A stretch of DNA of 64,000 nucleotides from Bdellovibrionales bacterium. GTDB lineage: Bacteria > Bdellovibrionota > Bdellovibrionia > Bdellovibrionales > JAGQZY01. Position 1 is the stretch's first letter, and every line of letters begins with the position of its first letter. This document shows, one piece after another, positions 7,539-24,450 of this stretch. The translations under genes and the position numbers were made by a program. The stretch spans positions 11,204-75,203 of the forward strand of contig JBGSNK010000077.1 of the NCBI GenBank assembly GCA_041739665.1. The letters run 5' to 3'. The notes under the pieces are model-generated. The model ran no database searches and was not told where the DNA came from. It saw only the letters and a program-made list of their open reading frames with translations.

Positions 7539-9352
7539 TCCAATTCGGTTAATTGAGACTCAAATTTCTGAAGAGTCTTATCTTGCTGATTAATAAGTTC
7601 ATCGAGCCTTTGATAACTGGTGGCAATTTTCATCTGAACTTCACCAATTTTTTGGAATAAATCTTGTGCCACTGGCGTTCCATACTCCAATTCTGCCATC
7701 ATCCTGTTTTTTTCTTCCAAATCGGACTCAAGATCTATGATACTCAATTCCAGTTTCTCAATTTCTTTTTTTATGGGATTCACCTGCTTGGCTCGGGCTT
7801 GCACAATTTCAGCGCGACGACGTCGCATTTCTTTTTTATCGTGATTGTTTTTTTTGGATTTTTGAACAGGCTCTTCACCCCAACCCTCTTTATTTAAAAA
7901 TTCTTCATAGGTCCCTAAGAAAAGATGGGCGTCTCCATTTTTAAACACGATAAGCTTGTTAGCCAATTTATCGAGAAGATCCTCATCATGACTGACAAAG
8001 AGAACACCACCAGGAAAATTGTCAATCTCTTCACAAAGAGCTTGAATAGACTCCATATCCAAGTGATTGGTGGGCTCATCTAAGAGTAAAAGATTGCAAG
8101 ACTTAGCAATGACTTTGCCCAACAAAACACGTCCTTGTTCGCCACCAGAAAGAACCGAGATTTTTTTTTCAGCATCATCGCCCGAGAACATCATAGCTCC
8201 ACAGATCGAACGCACTTGGCTTATCGAGAGGTTTGGGTTCTCGGAGCCAATCTCTTCATAAACCATTGCGTTGGGACTGAGCTTCTTTTTGTTGGTCTGC
8301 TGGTAGTAGGCAATGCGACTGTCGGGATGCTGGCTGATCTGTCCGTGAGCCGCGACCTGTCCGGCTATGGCGTTGAGTAAAGTCGTTTTACCGTAACCAT
8401 TTTTACCAATGATGGCGATGCGATCCTCGGGCTCTACACGAAAACTCAAGCCCTTGAACAAGGGATTTGCAGGATCATAACCAAACTCAAGATCCTCTAC
8501 AGTCATTAGAACTTTTGCAGGTGTTTCTTTAAAATTAAATCGAAAGCCGAGCTGATCTTCCGCTGAGAGTTTCATCATCGGTTTGATTTTTTCAATTTTC
8601 TTCAATTTTGATTGAGCTTGTTTAGCCTTGGAACTCTTGGCTCGAAAGCGATCCACAAAGGCCTGCATCTCTTTGACTTTTTTCTCTTGATTGACCCTGG
8701 TTTTTTCATAAATCTCCTCGTCAAGAGAGAGTTGCTCATAATACTTGCTTGTGTTGCCTTCGATTTTTCGTAAGCTTTGGCGATGAATACCCATGGTGTG
8801 GGTCACGACCGAGTCCATAAAGTTCCGATCGTGGGTGATGAGGATCACCTCCCCGCTAAAGTTTTTTAGAAACTGCCGCATCCAGTGCAAACTTAAAATA
8901 TCAAGATAGTTGGTCGGCTCGTCGAGTAACAAAAGATCGGGTTCTTGCAAAAGACTTTTCACTAAATTAATACGCAATTGGAAGCCGCCGGAGAATTCAT
9001 GGGGCGAGCGAGTCATATCTTCGGAAGTAAATCCCAGTCCGAAAAGCAGAGCTTCGGCTTTATAGAGATCGTTCTCACTGCCGCGAGGCAGGGCCGTGGC
9101 CGCCTCTTTGAGAACCTGGTCTTCTGTGAAGCGAATATGCTGATCTAAAAAACCGATGCGATAGGATTTGGGACAGTGGATATCGCCGTGATCCGCTTGC
9201 TCTTCCCCACGCATGATCTTAAACAACGTGGACTTTCCACAACCATTGCGCCCGACTAGCCCCACTACCTCGCCAGGACTGACCGAAAAAGACACATCTG
9301 AAAATAAAATACGAGATCCATAGGATTTTTGAAGATTGGCAACTTGTAGCAT
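7535..9352 (-). CDS. ABC-F family ATPase (two ABC domains, no TM domain, coiled-coil C-terminal extension)
   Basis: 605 aa with two Walker A motifs (GRNGCGKST, GKNGYGKTT), two signature motifs (FSGGFQ, LSGGEQ) and a basic/coiled C-terminus. Confidence 0.9.
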   Translation of the reverse strand: MLQVANLQKSYGSRILFSDVSFSVSPGEVVGLVGRNGCGKSTLFKIMRGEEQADHGDIHCPKSYRIGFLDQHIRFTEDQVLKEAATALPRGSENDLYKAEALLFGLGFTSEDMTRSPHEFSGGFQLRINLVKSLLQEPDLLLLDEPTNYLDILSLHWMRQFLKNFSGEVILITHDRNFMDSVVTHTMGIHRQSLRKIEGNTSKYYEQLSLDEEIYEKTRVNQEKKVKEMQAFVDRFRAKSSKAKQAQSKLKKIEKIKPMMKLSAEDQLGFRFNFKETPAKVLMTVEDLEFGYDPANPLFKGLSFRVEPEDRIAIIGKNGYGKTTLLNAIAGQVAAHGQISQHPDSRIAYYQQTNKKKLSPNAMVYEEIGSENPNLSISQVRSICGAMMFSGDDAEKKISVLSGGEQGRVLLGKVIAKSCNLLLLDEPTNHLDMESIQALCEEIDNFPGGVLFVSHDEDLLDKLANKLIVFKNGDAHLFLGTYEEFLNKEGWGEEPVQKSKKNNHDKKEMRRRRAEIVQARAKQVNPIKKEIEKLELSIIDLESDLEEKNRMMAELEYGTPVAQDLFQKIGEVQMKIATSYQRLDELINQQDKTLQKFESQLTELD

Positions 9353-17409: not shown

Positions 17410-17652
17410 GTTTTGGAAATTTTCTGCACACGCATCTTGTTTTCTAAAAATTGAGTCTTCTCAAATAACTGTTGCTCGAACTGTTTCTGCAAAAAGAAGC
17501 CTGCATTGCTGTCGACCTCGCGCCACCTCTTATTGACTCACTTCGATACAAGCTTGATTTATAATGTCTCATGCTGGGACGTAAAATAGTTCTAAGATCA
17601 TATTATTACTTAAGGTGAGATATATATTATACACTTAAGGCATGGGGGAGTT

Positions 17653-18444
17653 ATGGGCAAAGTAACATCTTTAATTAGTAATAAATCTGGTTTTAGTCTA
17701 GTCGAGCTCGTTATTGTTTCGGGCCTTCTTGGGATTTTGATCGCGGCAAGTGGCTCTATCATTCTCAATTTACAAAAGACTATGAATGGCCTTAATGCTC
17801 AACAAGAATTGACCTCGTTGAGTAGTGAAGTTCAAGGACGTATGATTGCTGAAAAGCTTTGTACGCCTTCTATCGTTCCTGCAAATAAATTTCAAAACTT
17901 TAGTCTCACACAGGCTTCAGCATTGAGCTCAAGCGCTAACGCTGGGATGCCATTCTCGTTTCTGTTAGCAAATGGAGAGAGCATTCAAGCAAACCAAACC
18001 CTTTTAGGCTACCCATTTTTGGTCGAGAGTTTTGAACTTTACGACGCTCAAATTGTTGATTCCTCACCACTTGAACAGACATATATGGCCAATGTTGTAG
18101 GGCGCTTTAAATACAATAGATCGGTAAATGGTCCCTCCGAGTTTCAAAGAAACTTCGGGACCCTTTTCATAAAAGTCAACAATAGCAATCAGATTACAAA
18201 TTGCTCAAAAACTGACTTGAGTTTAAGTGGCAGAGATTGCAAAGCTTGTGGAATAAACAACACCATATCCACACTTATTATGCAAAACCAAACATGCTCT
18301 CCACCAGGCGTTGAAATGATCGCGCCAGAAGGTTCCGTTCGTAGTAAAATTGTTAGCTGCCCGAGTGGACAAGCGAATATTTCTACAATCTGTATTAACG
18401 GCGAATGGAGAAGTATAGGAACTTGTGGCAAAGACAATAACTAA
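17653..18444 (+). CDS. prepilin-type N-terminal cleavage/methylation domain protein with a Cys-rich C-terminal module
   Basis: NKSGFSLVELVIVSGLLGILIA is a class III (type IV pilin) signal. The protein is 263 aa with 7 Cys in the last ~80 aa. GGGGGAG Shine-Dalgarno upstream. Confidence 0.75.
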   Translation: MGKVTSLISNKSGFSLVELVIVSGLLGILIAASGSIILNLQKTMNGLNAQQELTSLSSEVQGRMIAEKLCTPSIVPANKFQNFSLTQASALSSSANAGMPFSFLLANGESIQANQTLLGYPFLVESFELYDAQIVDSSPLEQTYMANVVGRFKYNRSVNGPSEFQRNFGTLFIKVNNSNQITNCSKTDLSLSGRDCKACGINNTISTLIMQNQTCSPPGVEMIAPEGSVRSKIVSCPSGQANISTICINGEWRSIGTCGKDNN

Positions 18445-18468
18445 TAATTAATTGTAAATATAAAATAG

Positions 18469-18696
18469 TCATTTATTGGTTCGAGCTGTTGCGATTGCGA
18501 GATCTATCTCAACCATCCATTGCTCGAGGAGCGTAAAATCGTAAGTTTCTTTACCATAAATCTCTGCCTCGACCATTTTTAATAAATCAGCGTCCATAAT
18601 TCTCACAAACGGATTTACGCTCTGACCGATTGTGTGCGAATCGCTCCAATCTAATAAAACCCAACCTCTTTCTACAAATACGAGGGAACAGATCAC
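18469..18696 (-). CDS. hypothetical ORF (possibly a gene remnant)
   Basis: 75-aa ORF with a GTG start, no convincing RBS and no recognisable family, in an AT-rich accessory stretch. Confidence 0.2.
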   Translation of the reverse strand: MICSLVFVERGWVLLDWSDSHTIGQSVNPFVRIMDADLLKMVEAEIYGKETYDFTLLEQWMVEIDLAIATARTNK

Positions 18697-18771
18697 AAGA
18701 ATGCTCGTGAAGTCTTCGAAAAAATATTCCCTGCCAATAAGGATGGGGTTTACACAACTGATACCGAAGTC

Positions 18772-18963
18772 ATGAAAGTTATCCTACCTGACAAAGAACA
18801 CCTGCTTTTAGGGGCTTTCACAGAAGATGAGGAAACTAAAAAGTTTTTTGAACATGGCAAGAGAGGAAAATTTGATTTTGAAGTTTGCTACTGCTCTCTA
18901 TACGAGCAGTGCTGGTTGCTGCACGGGAAAAATGAACATAAAAAAATAAGCCAATGTGATTGA
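18772..18963 (+). CDS. hypothetical ORF (possibly a 5'-truncated remnant)
   Basis: 63-aa ORF. The frame stays open upstream to 18658 without any start codon, which suggests a decayed larger gene. Confidence 0.2.
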   Translation: MKVILPDKEHLLLGAFTEDEETKKFFEHGKRGKFDFEVCYCSLYEQCWLLHGKNEHKKISQCD

Positions 18964-19023
18964 GGAGCCTGTGATTATTTTGGAGTCGCTGCGGTTTAAC
19001 AACAAATATCTTGGATTAGATTC

Positions 19024-19052
19024 TTGACTATATTGGACCATCATTCCATAAT
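19024..19052 (+). promoter_or_regulatory. sigma-70-type promoter, apparently giving a leaderless mRNA
   Basis: TTGACT (19024-19029), 17-nt spacer, CATAAT (19047-19052). The ATG of the next gene is at 19059, with no Shine-Dalgarno in between. Confidence 0.4.
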
Positions 19053-19058
19053 AGCCAA

Positions 19059-20252
19059 ATGCACATAAAGAGGGACTTTTTTGACACTATTAAAACTGGT
19101 ACCCAGCTCGAGGCCGTTATGGTTTGGGGGCCAAGGCAGGTGGGCAAAACCACTTTACTTGACCAGCTAGACCTTAACTCAAGACTTTTTCTTGATGATC
19201 TAGGTGCCCGGCAGAGCGCTCAAAATGACCCTGCCTTTGTTATTAGCACTCTCAAACTCCCCTGCTTGATTGACGAAGCCCAGTATGCTCCCAATCTTTT
19301 CCCAGAGATTAAACGCCTGATCGATCAGCAGCGTCGTGAGGGACTGAAGGTGGGCTCTAAACCCGCAACCCAATTTTACTTTACTGGCTCCAACCGCACC
19401 CTTTTAGACAAGACTGTGAAAGAATCTTTGGCGGGTCGCTGTCACCTGTTCACTCTGCATGGACTTTCAATTAAAGAGTTGCAACGGGACTTCAACCATT
19501 TAAATATTGGCGATTATTTTGTTAACGGAGGATTCCCAGAGCTTTATACGCGAGAAAATCTGAACCCAAGACACTATATCAATGACTACATAACATCTTT
19601 TGTAGAGAAAGATATAGCCGTCAGTGCAGGCATTGAAAAAATGGAAAGCTTTCACAAAGCAATTCGCCTATTGGCTGCCCGCACAGGACAATTCCTTAAC
19701 ATCAGCGAACTATCTAAACTCGCAGGAGTCGATCAAAAAACATTGGATAGCTGGCTTACTTTGCTACAAAGAAATTCCGTCATTGAGCTTTTACCCACTT
19801 TTGCGACTAATCTAAGTAAACGCATTGTCAAAATGAAAAAACTTTTCTTTTATGATGTTGGTTTATGTTCGCGCCTACAAGGCTTTGTTGAACCTGACTC
19901 AATAATTCATTCTCCCCAGGCTGGCGCCTTGTTTGAAACCTTGGTGTTTTCGGAAATAGTCAAAACGCGAGATAATTTTTTAAAAGAGTGGCAACTTCAT
20001 ACCTGGCGCACAAAAGAGAAAAACGAAATTGACTTCATCCTGACAACTCCAAATCAGACGTTTTTTATCGAAGCAAAGATGGGTGTAAATAGCATCTCAG
20101 ACTTTAAAGTCGATCCAGAAGCCAAAAAGGTATTCAGGCAGAATGTCAAAAAAATTATTGTTTCAGCTGGAGGTGAAATACAAAAAATCTCTACTGATTC
20201 CATCGGTGTCCCTTTGAAAGACTTGGGGGATTACCTCCTTAAGGAGTCGTAA
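19059..20252 (+). CDS. AAA-family ATPase with a DUF4143-like C-terminal domain
   Basis: 397 aa with the Walker A motif GPRQVGKTT and Walker B-like LIDEAQ. The length and layout match the AAA_14/DUF4143 family as I remember it. Confidence 0.7.
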   Translation: MHIKRDFFDTIKTGTQLEAVMVWGPRQVGKTTLLDQLDLNSRLFLDDLGARQSAQNDPAFVISTLKLPCLIDEAQYAPNLFPEIKRLIDQQRREGLKVGSKPATQFYFTGSNRTLLDKTVKESLAGRCHLFTLHGLSIKELQRDFNHLNIGDYFVNGGFPELYTRENLNPRHYINDYITSFVEKDIAVSAGIEKMESFHKAIRLLAARTGQFLNISELSKLAGVDQKTLDSWLTLLQRNSVIELLPTFATNLSKRIVKMKKLFFYDVGLCSRLQGFVEPDSIIHSPQAGALFETLVFSEIVKTRDNFLKEWQLHTWRTKEKNEIDFILTTPNQTFFIEAKMGVNSISDFKVDPEAKKVFRQNVKKIIVSAGGEIQKISTDSIGVPLKDLGDYLLKES

Positions 20253-20318
20253 AACTTATGATAATAAGAAAACACCCTTGGAGAAAATGCTCCAGCGGGA
20301 AATACTGATATTTAAAAG

Positions 20319-20849
20319 TTACATCTCGTTAAAACGGTAATGAGCATAGCCACTCTTGGTCTTAATCCGATAGAACGACCACGAATACTGACGCTTTTCT
20401 GTTACAGAATCAAGAACGCCGTCAATCCCGTTAATACAAAAATATTCCTGGCCCTTTAACACCTTATTAATCTCCGTCAGTAAACCCTCACATACCTCTC
20501 CAGAAACAGCATGGCTTAAACTGTAAAAGTGGTTTTCAGTCTCGGTTCCTATAGCAATGTCCAATAAAGACCCTGATCTATCAAACGGCTCAATGTTATT
20601 ACACTTTATCTTCAAATACTTTTTATTAAAGCACTGCCAGTACGGATATCCCATACTTATTCCATCAAAAGGAGTTGCTTTAAAAGAACCTTTGTCAGAC
20701 TGTTTAAGATCCTCTATAGAAAGGATTCCATAATCATAGTTTACAAGTCCATAATGGCTTTGCTTATAAATAAAACTTTCGATTTCTCTTTGAAAGAAGA
20801 AGATCGCGGCCACGACAATAGTTAAAACAGAAAGAAATATCTTTTTCAT
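20319..20849 (-). CDS. membrane-anchored or secreted hypothetical protein
   Basis: 176 aa. The N-terminus MKKIFLSVLTIVVAAIFFF is hydrophobic. No recognised family. Confidence 0.5.
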   Translation of the reverse strand: MKKIFLSVLTIVVAAIFFFQREIESFIYKQSHYGLVNYDYGILSIEDLKQSDKGSFKATPFDGISMGYPYWQCFNKKYLKIKCNNIEPFDRSGSLLDIAIGTETENHFYSLSHAVSGEVCEGLLTEINKVLKGQEYFCINGIDGVLDSVTEKRQYSWSFYRIKTKSGYAHYRFNEM

Positions 20850-20916
20850 TCCTTGAGTCTCCTATAAATCTTGAGAAACTTATTCCTCTGCCTTATTGCA
20901 CTTTTATTGCCTTTCT

Positions 20917-21585
20917 TTAGCCTGCAGTATAGGCTTTGTATACCATCGCTGCCTCTTCCCATGAAACTGTACGCTTCAACTTGTGTTCCAATAGATATTT
21001 TTTGTGGAATAACCATCGAATACCAGCTGCGATGTTTAGATTCGGATCGAAAGCCTCGTTCTGATCAATATTAACTAAAAAATCCTTAAGCTCGCCCTTT
21101 TCATTTTTGAGGATTTCAATTGTTTCATCTGTCACTTGCATAAGCCCGTGAGCCCAATTACCCTTACTTGCTAAAACCTTAGCTGTTTCTTTAAAATCAG
21201 ACTCAGTTCTTATGAGAGCTTTTATAAGGTTGGCTTCCAAATGGACTTTAGGCTGTAACAGCTCATTCCAATATTTCGTCCATCCCGCGATGACTCTGTC
21301 ATAATTGTTTCCATTGGGCCGATCTAATTTATCAGGAGTGGGTAACTTCCTAAGGCGACCAAAGTTTTTTTGAGCAATTTTTTGAATCTCTTCGGAATAG
21401 ATTTGATCCTTCCTTGAGCGATTAACACGACAATGTCCATCCCGAATCGTCAAACCAGAAGGGTTCTTTTTACTTACAGGAACATGAAGAGGGTGCGCAG
21501 AGACCCAATGCTCATCGTGTGGACACATTCTCCATGGGTGTATTTTTTTTCTTTGTTTTGTTGTTTTTTTCTTTGGCACTAACAA
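20917..21585 (-). CDS. lytic transglycosylase (SLT) domain protein without an obvious signal peptide
   Basis: 222 aa. IRTESDF...GLMQVT...AGIRWL is the SLT catalytic-Glu and GLMQ pattern. The N-terminus is highly basic with a His/Cys cluster (HPWRMCPHDEHWVSAHPLH...GHC). Confidence 0.7.
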   Translation of the reverse strand: MLVPKKKTTKQRKKIHPWRMCPHDEHWVSAHPLHVPVSKKNPSGLTIRDGHCRVNRSRKDQIYSEEIQKIAQKNFGRLRKLPTPDKLDRPNGNNYDRVIAGWTKYWNELLQPKVHLEANLIKALIRTESDFKETAKVLASKGNWAHGLMQVTDETIEILKNEKGELKDFLVNIDQNEAFDPNLNIAAGIRWLFHKKYLLEHKLKRTVSWEEAAMVYKAYTAG

Positions 21586-21773
21586 CCCACACCTTATGAA
21601 GTACTTTTTTTATATTCATTTTTTCAGGATTTGTTCGTTATGTGTTATTGTATACATAATCCTCGTAAAACAACGTCTAGACAAGCTGTCGCTCAGCTAT
21701 TTTCTCTTTTTAATTTTATTTTGAAGCTTTAGGGGAGGGTAGGTCCTTCACTGCGCTCAGGATGACGAAAGTT

Positions 21774-21827
21774 TGGAGGTGGTGAGTGACTTCTCACCCC
21801 TACGGGGATTCGAATTCCTCCACCACC
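21774..21827. repeat. tRNA-Cys-derived chimeric mini-tRNA-like palindrome
   Basis: 21800-21827 is an inverted copy of the 28 nt at 21899-21926 (T-arm plus 3' acceptor strand of tRNA-Cys). 21774-21784 (TGGAGGTGGTG) is a direct copy of 21895-21905 (acceptor 3' strand + discriminator + CCA). Confidence 0.8.
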
Positions 21828-21894
21828 GGAGCGGAGCGACCAAACAAATAGACGGAATGCAAATGGGAAGTGGCAACGACCAGGACTGGTGAAA

Positions 21895-21968
21895 TGGAGG
21901 TGGTGGAGGAATTCGAATCCCCGTAGATGGATTTGCAGTCCACTGCCTAGCCACTCGGCCACACCACC
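21895..21968 (-). tRNA. tRNA-Cys (GCA), CCA encoded
   Basis: Reverse complement: GGTGGTG-TG-GCC..GGC-A-GTGGA-CTGCAAA-TCCAT-CTAC-GGGGA-TTCGAAT-TCCTC-CACCACC-T-CCA. It has a 7-bp acceptor stem, a canonical T-loop and anticodon GCA. 74 nt. Confidence 0.9.
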
Positions 21969-21984: not shown

Positions 21985-22013
21985 ATACTACTTGTAAGGG
22001 GAGGAGTGGGCAA
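21985..22013 (-). promoter_or_regulatory. candidate sigma-70 promoter for tRNA-Cys
   Basis: On the minus strand: TTGCCC (22013-22008), 17-nt spacer, TAGTAT (21990-21985), about 16 nt upstream of the tRNA 5' end. Confidence 0.35.
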
Positions 22014-23574: not shown

Positions 23575-24450
23575 TTAGTTTTGATCAAGGGGGCGAGACA
23601 AAGGATGATTTTCATCAATGGCTTCTCTCATCTTTTTTGTGCTTACAGATGTGTAAATCTGTGTCGTCTGAATACTAGAGTGTCCCAAAAGTTTTTGGAT
23701 AGAGCGCAAGTCCGCACCAGAGTCGAGAAGAGCCGTGGCACAGCCGTGACGAAACTGATGGGGATGAATAGTTTTTTCAAAACCTGCACGCTTGGACCAA
23801 GCATCCAACCAACGCCAAATATCCACCCTGGAGGGGCGTTTGCCTCGATCGTTGATCAATATAGACTTTTCATTCGTCTTTGCAAGATGGGGCCGAACCT
23901 GCCTTAAATAAATATTCAACTCATGACGGATGTGTTCTGTTAAAGGAACAAGCCTTTCCTTGCCGCCTTTGCCATGAACTTTAAGCCAAGATTCGGATTC
24001 TGAAAAATCGATCAGGTCGAAATCTATCAACTCGGTGACTCGACAGCCGAGGGCAAAAAGTAAAGTCAACGTGATGTGATTTCGCGCCGACTTGTAAGGG
24101 TCCTCAACACGAGAGGCGTCCACAAGAAGATTGTAATCTTCAAATGTGAGGGCTTGGGGCAACTTAGCTGTCACTTTGGGAGGGCGTAACACACTCAGAT
24201 CTGGAATTTTATCGCCCTGTCTTTGGCAAAACTTATAATAGGTTCGAATACTGCTTATCATTCGCGCTTGGGATCTTGTCGAGAGTTTTTGCTTGGTCAT
24301 AAACTGATAGACGGCACGTATGTCTTTCTGCTTTTCTAAAAACTCGGCAAATAATTCGAGATCTCGTCTGTAAGCCATAACAGTGTTCTGAGAGCGACCG
24401 CGAACGTTTTTCAAATCATCAAAAAAATCAACCCAATGAGGTAAAGCCAT
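23575..24450 (-). CDS. tyrosine site-specific recombinase, XerC/XerD family
   Basis: 291 aa with HQFRHGCATALLDSGADLRSIQKLLGHSSIQTTQIYT (the R-H-R-Y catalytic box). XerC and XerD cannot be told apart by eye. Confidence 0.85.
   Translation of the reverse strand: MALPHWVDFFDDLKNVRGRSQNTVMAYRRDLELFAEFLEKQKDIRAVYQFMTKQKLSTRSQARMISSIRTYYKFCQRQGDKIPDLSVLRPPKVTAKLPQALTFEDYNLLVDASRVEDPYKSARNHITLTLLFALGCRVTELIDFDLIDFSESESWLKVHGKGGKERLVPLTEHIRHELNIYLRQVRPHLAKTNEKSILINDRGKRPSRVDIWRWLDAWSKRAGFEKTIHPHQFRHGCATALLDSGADLRSIQKLLGHSSIQTTQIYTSVSTKKMREAIDENHPLSRPLDQN

Follow-up and report, generated by a model that had tools for sequence, protein, structure and literature searches.

The RtT family of repeats is known mainly from enterobacterial tRNA-Tyr loci, and in tyrT a Rho-dependent terminator lies within the repeats. 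To our knowledge, the E. coli rtT RNA has been on record since the early 1990s and still has no settled function. One of the repeat units in the tyrT operon encodes the RNA rttR (PMC3318445); the same article, citing Bosl and Kersten (1991), reports that rttR is set free from the primary transcript of the tRNA as a separate RNA. The rtT RNA has also been linked to the processing of the tyrT transcript and possibly to the stringent response (bioRxiv 10.1101/2024.07.17.603846).

The tyrT/tyrV locus of E. coli K-12 was analysed alongside the locus described below. Three tandem units of 178 nt follow tyrV, and one more is found between tyrT and tyrV. The units start directly after the CCA with a 59-nt spacer (C/G 3.2). 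They contain GGGGAAGGAUGAGAAGCUUCGA, a 22-nt inverted copy (86%) of the T-arm and acceptor of tRNA-Tyr located 64-67 nt from the tRNA arm, and their last 19 nt repeat the tRNA 3' end in direct orientation. They score 133-137 bits against RF00391, that is, as RtT. In the RF00391 consensus, the inverted copy pairs with the direct copy to form the closing helix, and the tail ends in CCA. The first K-12 unit is annotated, on the tRNA strand, as the ncRNA rttR, from 8 nt after tyrV to the CCA of the unit. In place of the T-loop core, E. coli RtT has UGAGAAG (GGAUGAGAAGC).

Other RNAs also exploit tRNA ends. The tRNA-like minihelices and t-elements of plant mitochondria and of some viral and long non-coding RNAs are RNase P/Z processing signals, in which an acceptor-like helix with a discriminator, and sometimes CCA, recruits tRNA-end enzymes. 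They usually retain a real T-arm, whereas at the present locus the T-arm copy is antisense and is one strand of a long hairpin. The 3'ETS sRNAs, which come from the 3' external transcribed spacer of tRNA operons, are functional small RNAs freed from a tRNA trailer by the cuts of tRNA processing (PMC6191717). The element described here shares a tRNA-trailer location with them (e.g. 3'ETS-leuZ of E. coli) but differs in having no proposed target pairing. As far as we know, 3'ETS-leuZ is not made of tRNA copies and does not carry a CCA-tailed end mimicking an acceptor.

Inverted and direct copies of the tRNA-Cys 3' end

The window, i.e. the whole 64-kb stretch of DNA that was analysed, comes from a Bdellovibrionales bacterium. 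On its minus strand, a ComM/YifB-type ATPase gene (23479-22025) is followed by tRNA-Cys, by the element studied here and by an SLT-domain ORF (21585-20917). ARAGORN finds only two real tRNAs in the window. ARAGORN and Rfam agree on tRNA-Cys(GCA), at the place and on the strand given in an earlier note on this DNA. No comparable arrangement accompanies the tRNA-His of the window. The nearest Phage_integrase ORF (23575-24450) lies on the upstream side of comM. Because the relatives examined have it in synteny, it looks chromosomal.

A search for repeats in the window recovered an inverted repeat of 28 nt with 100% complementarity, which mirrors the variable loop, the T-arm and the 3' acceptor strand of the tRNA in the left half (E-left) of a 54-nt element, E. 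No further copy of this 28-mer was found in the window with three mismatches allowed, and 0 are expected in shuffled sequences. The 11-nt direct repeat CACCACCTCCA (minus strand) occurs in the window at two sites only, 121 nt apart, the downstream one being the end of E and the other the 3' end of the tRNA itself (21895-21905). The 7-bp helix GGTGGTG/CACCACC that the note drew between the copies is also present. In view of the repeat coordinates, identities and chance expectations as computed, the earlier description was correct, and the observation of tRNA-derived inverted and direct copies is confirmed. Two details have to be amended. A spacer does separate the tRNA (end at 21895) from the element (start at 21827), but it measures 67 nt; the 71 nt given before is how far apart the arms of the inverted repeat lie. 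The 15-nt stretch 21785-21799 is where it was said to be, but the label 'filler' does not suit it, because it contains the invariant block GGGUGAGAAG. The features of the locus are collected in Table 1.

Table 1. Features of the tRNA-Cys locus (window coordinates)
Feature	Position	Strand	Basis or remark
Putative promoter-like site for tRNA-Cys	21985-22013	-	-35 TTGCCC (22013-22008), 17-nt spacer, -10 TAGTAT (21990-21985); read from the sequence
tRNA-Cys(GCA), U73, encoded CCA	21895-21968	-	ARAGORN; Rfam tRNA model, 61.7 bits
Mirrored part of the tRNA: variable loop CTAC, T-arm, 3' acceptor strand	21899-21926	-	inverted repeat, 28/28
Spacer S, 67 nt, first part of the repeat unit	21828-21894	-	homology to L018 and L005
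Element E, 54 nt, imperfect 17-pair hairpin with 3' UCCA tail	21774-21827	-	predicted fold and consensus structure
E-left, exact reverse complement of tRNA variable loop, T-arm and 3' acceptor strand	21800-21827	-	
Invariant block GGGUGAGAAG	21790-21799	-	invariant in 4/4 copies
Direct copy of the tRNA 3' end, CACCACC-U-CCA	21774-21784	-	0.01 expected

The promoter-like site agrees with the consensus at 8 of 12 positions, under the threshold of the scan, and an alignment shows a conserved GTAGTATC block upstream of the tRNA in the window, L007, L010 and L011; the -10 is conserved in relatives. In E, positions 21778-21785 pair with 21820-21827 to form the closing helix, and 21774-21777 make the UCCA tail; AACUUUCGUC follows downstream. 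The terminator scan found no terminator-like site on the minus strand in 21586-21894. E was also considered as an intrinsic terminator and rejected as such, since no U-tract follows it.

The repeat unit and its copies in relatives

The relatives of the window ComM are Bdellovibrionales and Pseudobdellovibrionaceae MAGs. A tRNA-Cys gene follows comM in L005, L006/L007/L010, L011, L012, L013/L014 and L018; its 74 nt are identical to those of the window in L005, L006, L007, L010 and L011, and differ by 1-3 nt in L012, L013/L014 and L018. The comM relatives L001-L004 and L015-L017 have no tRNA-Cys at this locus. Alignment of the tRNA flanks shows that the sequences diverge directly after the CCA in every lineage. 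L007 and L010, from the same species, are identical up to the CCA and different beyond, and the L006 contig stops exactly at the CCA. In L011, synteny with the window is regained only at a CBS-domain gene (window 17409-16876), from which we take the window segment 17410-21773 (GC 0.40) to be a variable islet. This islet gave the first hint of an integration scar.

Comparison of the locus in relatives, a check proposed in the earlier note, uncovered homologous units in L018 and L005. L018 is a 521-nt metagenomic contig that was retrieved with a spurious ORF spanning the tRNA and the element as protein query (match P0052); a second frame of this kind, used in the same way, found nothing. The contig carries the end of comM, tRNA-Cys (177-250) and two tandem units. 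Unit 1 consists of a 69-nt spacer (251-319) and a 53-nt element ending at 372; unit 2 has the same layout, with its spacer at 373-441 and its end at 494. Both spacers are homologous to the window spacer S. Each L018 unit starts with CTTCAC and ends with CCACCTCCA, which is invariant in all 4 copies; the sequence after the CCA starts with TTTCAC in the window and CTTCAC in L013.

In L005, a distant Bdellovibrionia MAG, blastn of the tRNA flanks identified a copy of E (8079-8132, 45/54 identical) on the strand of its tRNA-Cys and 2.49 kb downstream of it. A terminator follows the L005 tRNA, and then come 2.4 kb of foreign DNA, where a truncated resolvase (PF00239) and an IS3-OrfA-like remnant precede E. 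This debris is positioned inside S and therefore interrupts the unit. A probable second copy, at about 8160-8208, is decayed.

An HMM of the whole unit retrieved the four copies with nhmmer E-values of 1e-24 to 5e-36, the L005 match reaching back to unit position 27. In 243 kb of compared sequence, R1, a covariance model built for E, gave hits of 74-85 bits to these four copies and to nothing else. The tandem units of L018, together with the HMM and covariance-model matches, indicate that the feature is a repeat unit of about 121 nt made of S and E. The window has one copy of it and L018 a tandem pair; L005 has one, with a possible second that is decayed. At least three genomes, belonging to Bdellovibrionales lineages that diverged deeply, are thereby shown to carry the unit. 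All four copies of E are made from the 3' part of the tRNA itself, as the earlier note had it for the window, and have kept the acceptor-like helix and the discriminator-CCA tail.

The unit is not found everywhere. It is absent in L011 between tRNA-Cys and the syntenic CBS gene, and the tRNA-Cys loci L020 and L021 have no S-E unit. In L013, it is cut down to 27 nt: the first 27 nt of the window S match the sequence after the L013 tRNA-Cys, with a score that 0 of 2000 shuffles reach. The absence in L011, the remnant in L013 and the split and decayed copies in L005 suggest that the unit is dispensable in some lineages. Pattern, nhmmer and covariance-model searches found one copy only in the 64-kb window, hence no dispersed repeat of the REP or MITE kind. 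A metagenome scan for GGTGGTG-N5-30-CTACGGGG...CACCACC found nothing, and no copy was recovered in two scans of viral contigs or in a BLAST search of plasmids.

The copies are 74-91% identical to one another in E and 59-86% in S. For comparison, the four-fold degenerate sites of comM are 32.8% identical between the window and L005, which amounts to saturation, and the ComM proteins are 62% identical. Downstream of E, the two loci cannot be aligned. Upstream of E, a shuffle test of the local alignment was not significant, and nhmmer extends the L005 match into S. Judged against the comM sites, the unit is shown to be far more conserved than neutral DNA. The blocks GGGUGAGAAG and CCACCUCCA are invariant across the copies. 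E-left departs from the tRNA complement by 2, 3 and 5 substitutions in the other three copies, 10 in total, with no position shared. As all 10 substitutions are private to single copies, the ancestral E-left was a perfect complement, which the window has retained.

Predicted fold and comparison with RtT

On the sense strand, i.e. that of the tRNA, E has an MFE of -25.3 kcal/mol (z = -2.7). In the consensus of the four copies, this strand forms a single imperfect hairpin with 17 pairs, from which the UCCA tail hangs free; within the hairpin the T-arm copy pairs with the right half of the element. On this strand 65 of 68 cells are paired (95.6%), as compared with 81.8% in the antisense mirror. 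The alignment contains 11 G.U cells, at five pairs, and 0 A.C cells. The wobble pairs all favour the tRNA-sense strand, with a p of roughly 0.03 for the bias by our own count. There is one compensatory change, from A-U to C-G, and covariation is not significant, as 138 of 500 shuffles reach the observed value (four sequences from three genomes). The idea that the T-arm copy forms a hairpin of its own does not hold on the tRNA-sense strand, where 13 of 20 cells pair (hand count); the long hairpin is found instead. Within it, UGAGAA of the invariant block faces UUCGAA of E-left and yields tandem G.A/A.G. Modelling thus shows that E, the last 54 nt of the unit, can fold in tRNA sense into a hairpin with a closing helix of acceptor sequence and a U73-CCA end.

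S has no consensus pairs among the copies and is predicted to be unstructured. It is C-rich and G-poor (C/G 1.9 in the window, i.e. about 2), with 68-73% pyrimidines (73% in the window). For a read-through transcript comprising the tRNA, S and E, an alternative MFE fold is predicted at -100.7 kcal/mol (z = -5.1). In this fold, E-left and the 3' half of the tRNA form 28 bp, and the 5' strand of the tRNA pairs with the terminal CACCACC of E.

The earlier note regarded an inverted T-arm combined with a direct CCA end as atypical, but the RtT repeats of E. coli tyrT have the same arrangement. In both cases, the unit lies in the tRNA trailer, on the tRNA strand, and begins right behind the CCA (21894-21774 in the window; 251-494 in L018). 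Both have a spacer rich in C and poor in G, of 59 nt in E. coli and 67 nt at the present locus, and an inverted copy of the T-arm and acceptor is found at a similar arm distance (64-67 nt in E. coli, 71 nt here). A direct copy of the tRNA 3' end including the CCA closes the unit (21774-21784 in the window). The inverted copy is the 5' strand of a closing helix whose other strand is the direct copy, the hairpin having a CCA tail. The T-loop core UUCGAA is changed to UGAGAA in both. As to tandem repetition, it is seen in E. coli and in L018; the window has a single unit, and L005 one with a possible decayed second.

The two systems also differ. The association of RtT with enterobacterial tRNA-Tyr is not found here, where the tRNA is tRNA-Cys and the host belongs to the Bdellovibrionales (Bdellovibrionota). 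The unit has 121 nt instead of 178 nt, and the interior of the hairpin about 15 nt instead of about 85 nt with two inner stems. The direct copy has 11 nt against 19 nt in E. coli, the tail is UCCA against CACCACCA, and the inverted copy is perfect whereas that of E. coli reaches 86%. RF00391 (gathering threshold 45 bits) gives no hit at E <= 10, either in L018 or in the searched segment 21600-22030 of the window, and model R1 has no match to the E. coli RtT units. Since neither model detects the other's sequences, the window element is to be considered an RtT analogue rather than a member of the family. The relation to RtT, as judged from this comparison, is architectural; homology is not demonstrated.

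Because the design is that of the E. coli RtT repeats, the element is best read neither as a mini-tRNA gene nor as a one-off scar. We consider it probable that S and E together, about 121 nt, are an RtT-like repeat unit of the tRNA trailer that is co-transcribed with the tRNA and processed like a tRNA end. The favoured reading of E is a tRNA-end mimic that would be handled by tRNA enzymes. Several observations weigh against this explanation: the covariation is not significant with four copies in three genomes, RF00391 and R1 fail to cross-match, L011 lacks the unit, L013 keeps 27 nt of it, and in L005 a terminator and foreign DNA part E from the tRNA. Moreover, a perfect E-left could be maintained with no selection acting, by recurrent gene conversion or template switching that uses the adjacent tRNA.

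Possible origins and fate of the unit

Partial tRNA genes resulting from integration are well documented (PMC9897764), and a functionless scar of an integrative element has to be weighed. The 11-nt repeat would then be an attR, and the inverted copy either a leftover of attP or the outcome of recombination in the wrong orientation at the palindromic T-loop. The locus does resemble attR tRNA fragments in having a short direct 3'-end repeat (here 121 nt downstream, as expected of an attR) behind an intact tRNA at a variable site. The 3' end of tRNA-Cys is a variable junction, at which L007 and L010 differ and the L006 contig ends; the low-GC islet 17410-21773 lies just beyond E, and L005 has its truncated resolvase and IS3-like remnant between the tRNA and E. 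However, the direct repeats enclose 110 gene-free nt, with no island or integrase and with an extra inverted copy. A scar does not account for equal-sized tandem units such as those of L018, nor for intervening S and E sequences that are 59-91% conserved while neutral sites are saturated. In addition, the mobile debris of L005 sits within S and interrupts the unit, the viral contigs and plasmids searched contain no copy, and the E. coli RtT units, which have the same layout, are not island ends. An attL/attR island scar was our first working model; three things weakened it, namely the equal-sized tandem units of L018, the fact that S and E are conserved, and the parallel in E. coli. A CTX-like folded ssDNA att site, or a wrong-orientation crossover in the T-loop, was rejected since it predicts junctions that consist of a palindrome around the T-loop or of a disrupted tRNA, and the sequence fits neither. 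The nested or inverted recombination scar imagined in the earlier note gives way, as a one-off event, to a conserved unit of about 121 nt that is found in tandem and is kept far above the neutral level. We hold a scar to be distinctly unlikely as an explanation of the unit; an attR-type scar is a possible ultimate origin of the direct repeat.

That the unit is a neutral or selfish by-product of replication appears rather unlikely to us. By this account, a template switch or fold-back copied the 3' part of the tRNA in reverse, the unit was amplified when CCA-end repeats crossed over unequally, and conversion with the tRNA as template keeps it similar, all without function. Template switching creates hairpin arms and homogenises them (PMC8794818, PMC7202029), and the window arm is identical at 28/28 positions and only 71 nt from its template; a perfect inverted copy at such a distance, about 70 nt, is in keeping with hairpins made by short-range template switching (PMC8794818). 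The copy numbers (1, 2, and 1 with a remnant) and the losses in L011 and L013 point the same way. Such a process may explain the origin of the arm but not the conservation of S, GGGUGAGAAG and the right arm, which have no template in the tRNA. It leaves the wobble-only strand bias unexplained, and likewise the fact that E. coli, in an independent family, has the same UC-to-GA change in the T-loop core. A plus-strand mini-tRNA gene, expressed as its own small RNA with an acceptor stem, a 15-nt connector and a true T-arm, would fit 18 of 20 paired cells in the T-stem, including one G.U to U.G double change (partly counted by hand), and an acceptor helix is present. It is nevertheless very improbable. 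No tRNA is called in 21774-21827 by ARAGORN, nor by the Rfam tRNA model with hits accepted up to E <= 10, so that a mini-tRNA or pseudo-tRNA is not borne out. On the plus strand, there is no upstream promoter-like site and no CCA or conserved discriminator. Acceptor pairs number 23/28 there against 26/28 in sense, the mirrored long hairpin falls to 81.8% of cells paired, and the fold is no better than shuffles (z = -1.5 to -1.8). The probability that a chimeric inverted join, from assembly or amplification, produced the arrangement is negligible. The assembly is of metagenome type and is the sole record of this exact genome, but both arms lie in the interior of a contig some 100 kb long. Unique sequence separates them, their flanks are not complementary, and the complementarity ends sharply at 28 nt. 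Furthermore, two independent assemblies contain homologous units with the same arrangement and substitutions of their own, which disposes of the artefact that the note had named as a possible refutation.

Some further candidates were tried and rejected. For an invertible promoter (inverton), the 71-bp segment is too short, and inversion would strip U73-CCA from the tRNA. A REP/RAYT-type element (GTAG followed by a hairpin) is at odds with a single copy in 64 kb. A MITE with 28-nt terminal inverted repeats inserted in the tRNA is contradicted by the lack of dispersed copies and by the 'degenerate' right arm, which is the same in every copy. Lastly, a small antisense ORF (GGAGG-N6-ATG/GTG, 'MTSHP...') has a frame that varies between copies, and L005 has no start codon.

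Returning to the RtT-like reading, it can be proposed that the unit is co-transcribed with tRNA-Cys from the tRNA promoter, there being no intrinsic terminator between them. The tRNA would fold first, and an endonucleolytic cut behind its CCA would create the 5' end of an S-E RNA. E would then fold into a CCA-tailed mimic of an acceptor end. Since E resembles a tRNA acceptor end, 3' trimming may halt at ...CACCACC-UCCA / CACCACCUCCA (window 21774). Indeed, RNase T is stopped by ends made of a duplex plus CC, which gives the 4-nt overhang of tRNAs (PMC3439924). A stable RNA some 115-121 nt long would result or, should RNase P make a further cut ahead of G1 of E, the 54-nt hairpin. S, being C-rich and predicted to be unstructured, may load Rho. 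Pairing of E-left with the 3' half of the unprocessed tRNA (28 bp) could act as a fate or quality switch and may trap or mark precursors. Copy number would probably change by unequal exchange between CCA-end repeats. The perfect arm may stem from template switching, which may also refresh it (PMC8794818, PMC7202029).

Taken together, the locus is a second example of the RtT blueprint, with an unrelated sequence, a different tRNA and a host of a distant phylum, and an element of this kind is thus not unprecedented. The recurring features are the start right after the CCA, a C-rich spacer of about 60-70 nt, an antisense copy of the T-arm and acceptor, a CCA-tailed closing helix, and UGAGAA. Since they recur, they are the features most likely to be functional. 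A broader proposal, to which we give a low probability, is that RtT-like 'tRNA echo' RNAs form a recurrent class that has evolved independently, with possible roles as decoys or sensors in trans, as a switch in cis and as carriers of a protein site at UGAGAA. If so, trailers with antisense and direct copies of the 3' end of their own tRNA would produce a CCA-tailed acceptor mimic. Decoys or sensors in trans could face RelA and the stringent response, the CCA-adding enzyme, RNase P or 3' exonucleases. The switch in cis could capture the 3' half of the unprocessed pre-tRNA, and the shared change of UUCGAA to UGAGAA, with its tandem G.A motif, would be a protein-recognition site. For annotation, the locus is a caution that a repeat of a tRNA 3' end beside a tRNA is not always the boundary of an island. 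A second family makes the question of RtT function testable by comparison.

Antisense strand of the tRNA-derived element

On the strand antisense to E, the 54-nt element partly copied from tRNA-Cys, a GGAGG motif is followed, after a gap of 6 nt, by GTG or ATG and then by codons for T-S-H-P. The frame of this mini-ORF varies among copies as a result of a 1-nt indel, and in the relative's contig L005 the start codon is absent. Most likely, the mini-ORF is no gene and merely reflects the CCTCC present in the tRNA end.

The 5′ arm of RtT in Escherichia coli

In E. coli (L019, the tyrT/tyrV locus), every RtT unit opens with the tRNA-Tyr T-arm copied imperfectly and in inverted orientation. Two of the copy's three mismatches to the tRNA convert UUCGAA into UGAGAA, so that pairing with tRNA-Tyr would place tandem G.A/A.G oppositions in the helix; the third is a G.G. 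No statement that the RtT 5′ arm originated as an inverted tRNA copy was found in the literature searched.

Sequence turnover behind tRNA-Cys

In the window, E and the syntenic CBS-domain gene bound a variable islet of low GC content (0.40). The corresponding interval measures 1.45 kb in one relative's contig, L011, and extends over about 8 kb in another, L013; in both, its gene content differs from that of the islet. The intergenic stretch separating E from the SLT-domain ORF carries a plus-strand hairpin that resembles a terminator and has a T-run; upstream of it, that strand bears no gene.

The repeat unit itself, spacer S plus E, is also altered in relatives. In L013, S is kept for its first 27 nt and then gives way to other sequence, in which a C-terminal piece of an HNH nuclease ORF seems recognisable by eye; the 8 kb up to the CBS-domain gene contain no E. 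In L005, where a terminator lies directly 3′ of tRNA-Cys, the spacer houses an IS3-OrfA-like remnant together with a resolvase truncated to 63 aa (PF00239), and a decayed second E-like stretch (TTTTCGAAAAGAGCCTAGGGGTGAAAAGCCATTTCCTGGCTCCG) is found about 30 nt past E. Directly behind tRNA-Cys, the place of the S-E unit is taken in L012 by a different repeat family: a pair of direct units, each about 96 nt long, with a 37-nt inverted repeat (92%; GTACCAAGT..TTTTCCGTAAAA..TACCAAGCT) and no derivation from tRNA. At another tRNA-Cys locus (L021), no inverted tRNA-Cys copy was found, although the tRNA end is directly repeated over 10 nt (CCACCTCCAC), 42 nt downstream. The end of this public metagenome contig in CTGTCTCTTATACACA, the Nextera/Tn5 mosaic-end adapter, is adapter contamination.

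Location of the features considered
Feature	Sequence	Positions	Strand
Antisense of E	window	21775-21850	plus
Antisense of E (two tandem units)	L018, metagenomic contig	320-372; 442-494	
Variable islet	window	17410-21773	
Pseudopilin-like ORF, N-methylation motif	islet	17653-18444	
DUF4143/AAA_14 ATPase	islet	19059-20252	
176-aa ORF, no family	islet		
SLT-domain ORF	islet	20917-21585	
Terminator-like hairpin, T-run (AGCTGTCGCTCAGCT ATTTTCTCTT)	window	21684-21698	plus
RtT inverted-copy arms	L019, K-12 NC_000913.3 1286000-1288200	1164-1185 vs 1253-1274	
Spacer remnant and HNH-like sequence	L013	11585-11980	
Mobile debris, decayed E-like stretch	L005	7699-8045; 8160-8208	
Other repeat family	L012	11587-11810	
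Adapter	L021	1024-1040	
tRNA-Cys junction	L006	2924-2997	
tRNA-Cys junction	L007	from 2262	
tRNA-Cys junction	L010	from 3103	

The tRNA-Cys 3′ junction within one species

L006, L007 and L010 belong to one species, whose ComM is 86% identical to that of the window, and their comM-to-tRNA sequences are identical. Divergence between L007 and L010 begins shortly past the CCA of tRNA-Cys, and the L006 contig ends exactly at this CCA, which together point to a junction that varies at the strain level. In this species, the 3′ junction of tRNA-Cys is probably an insertion hotspot.
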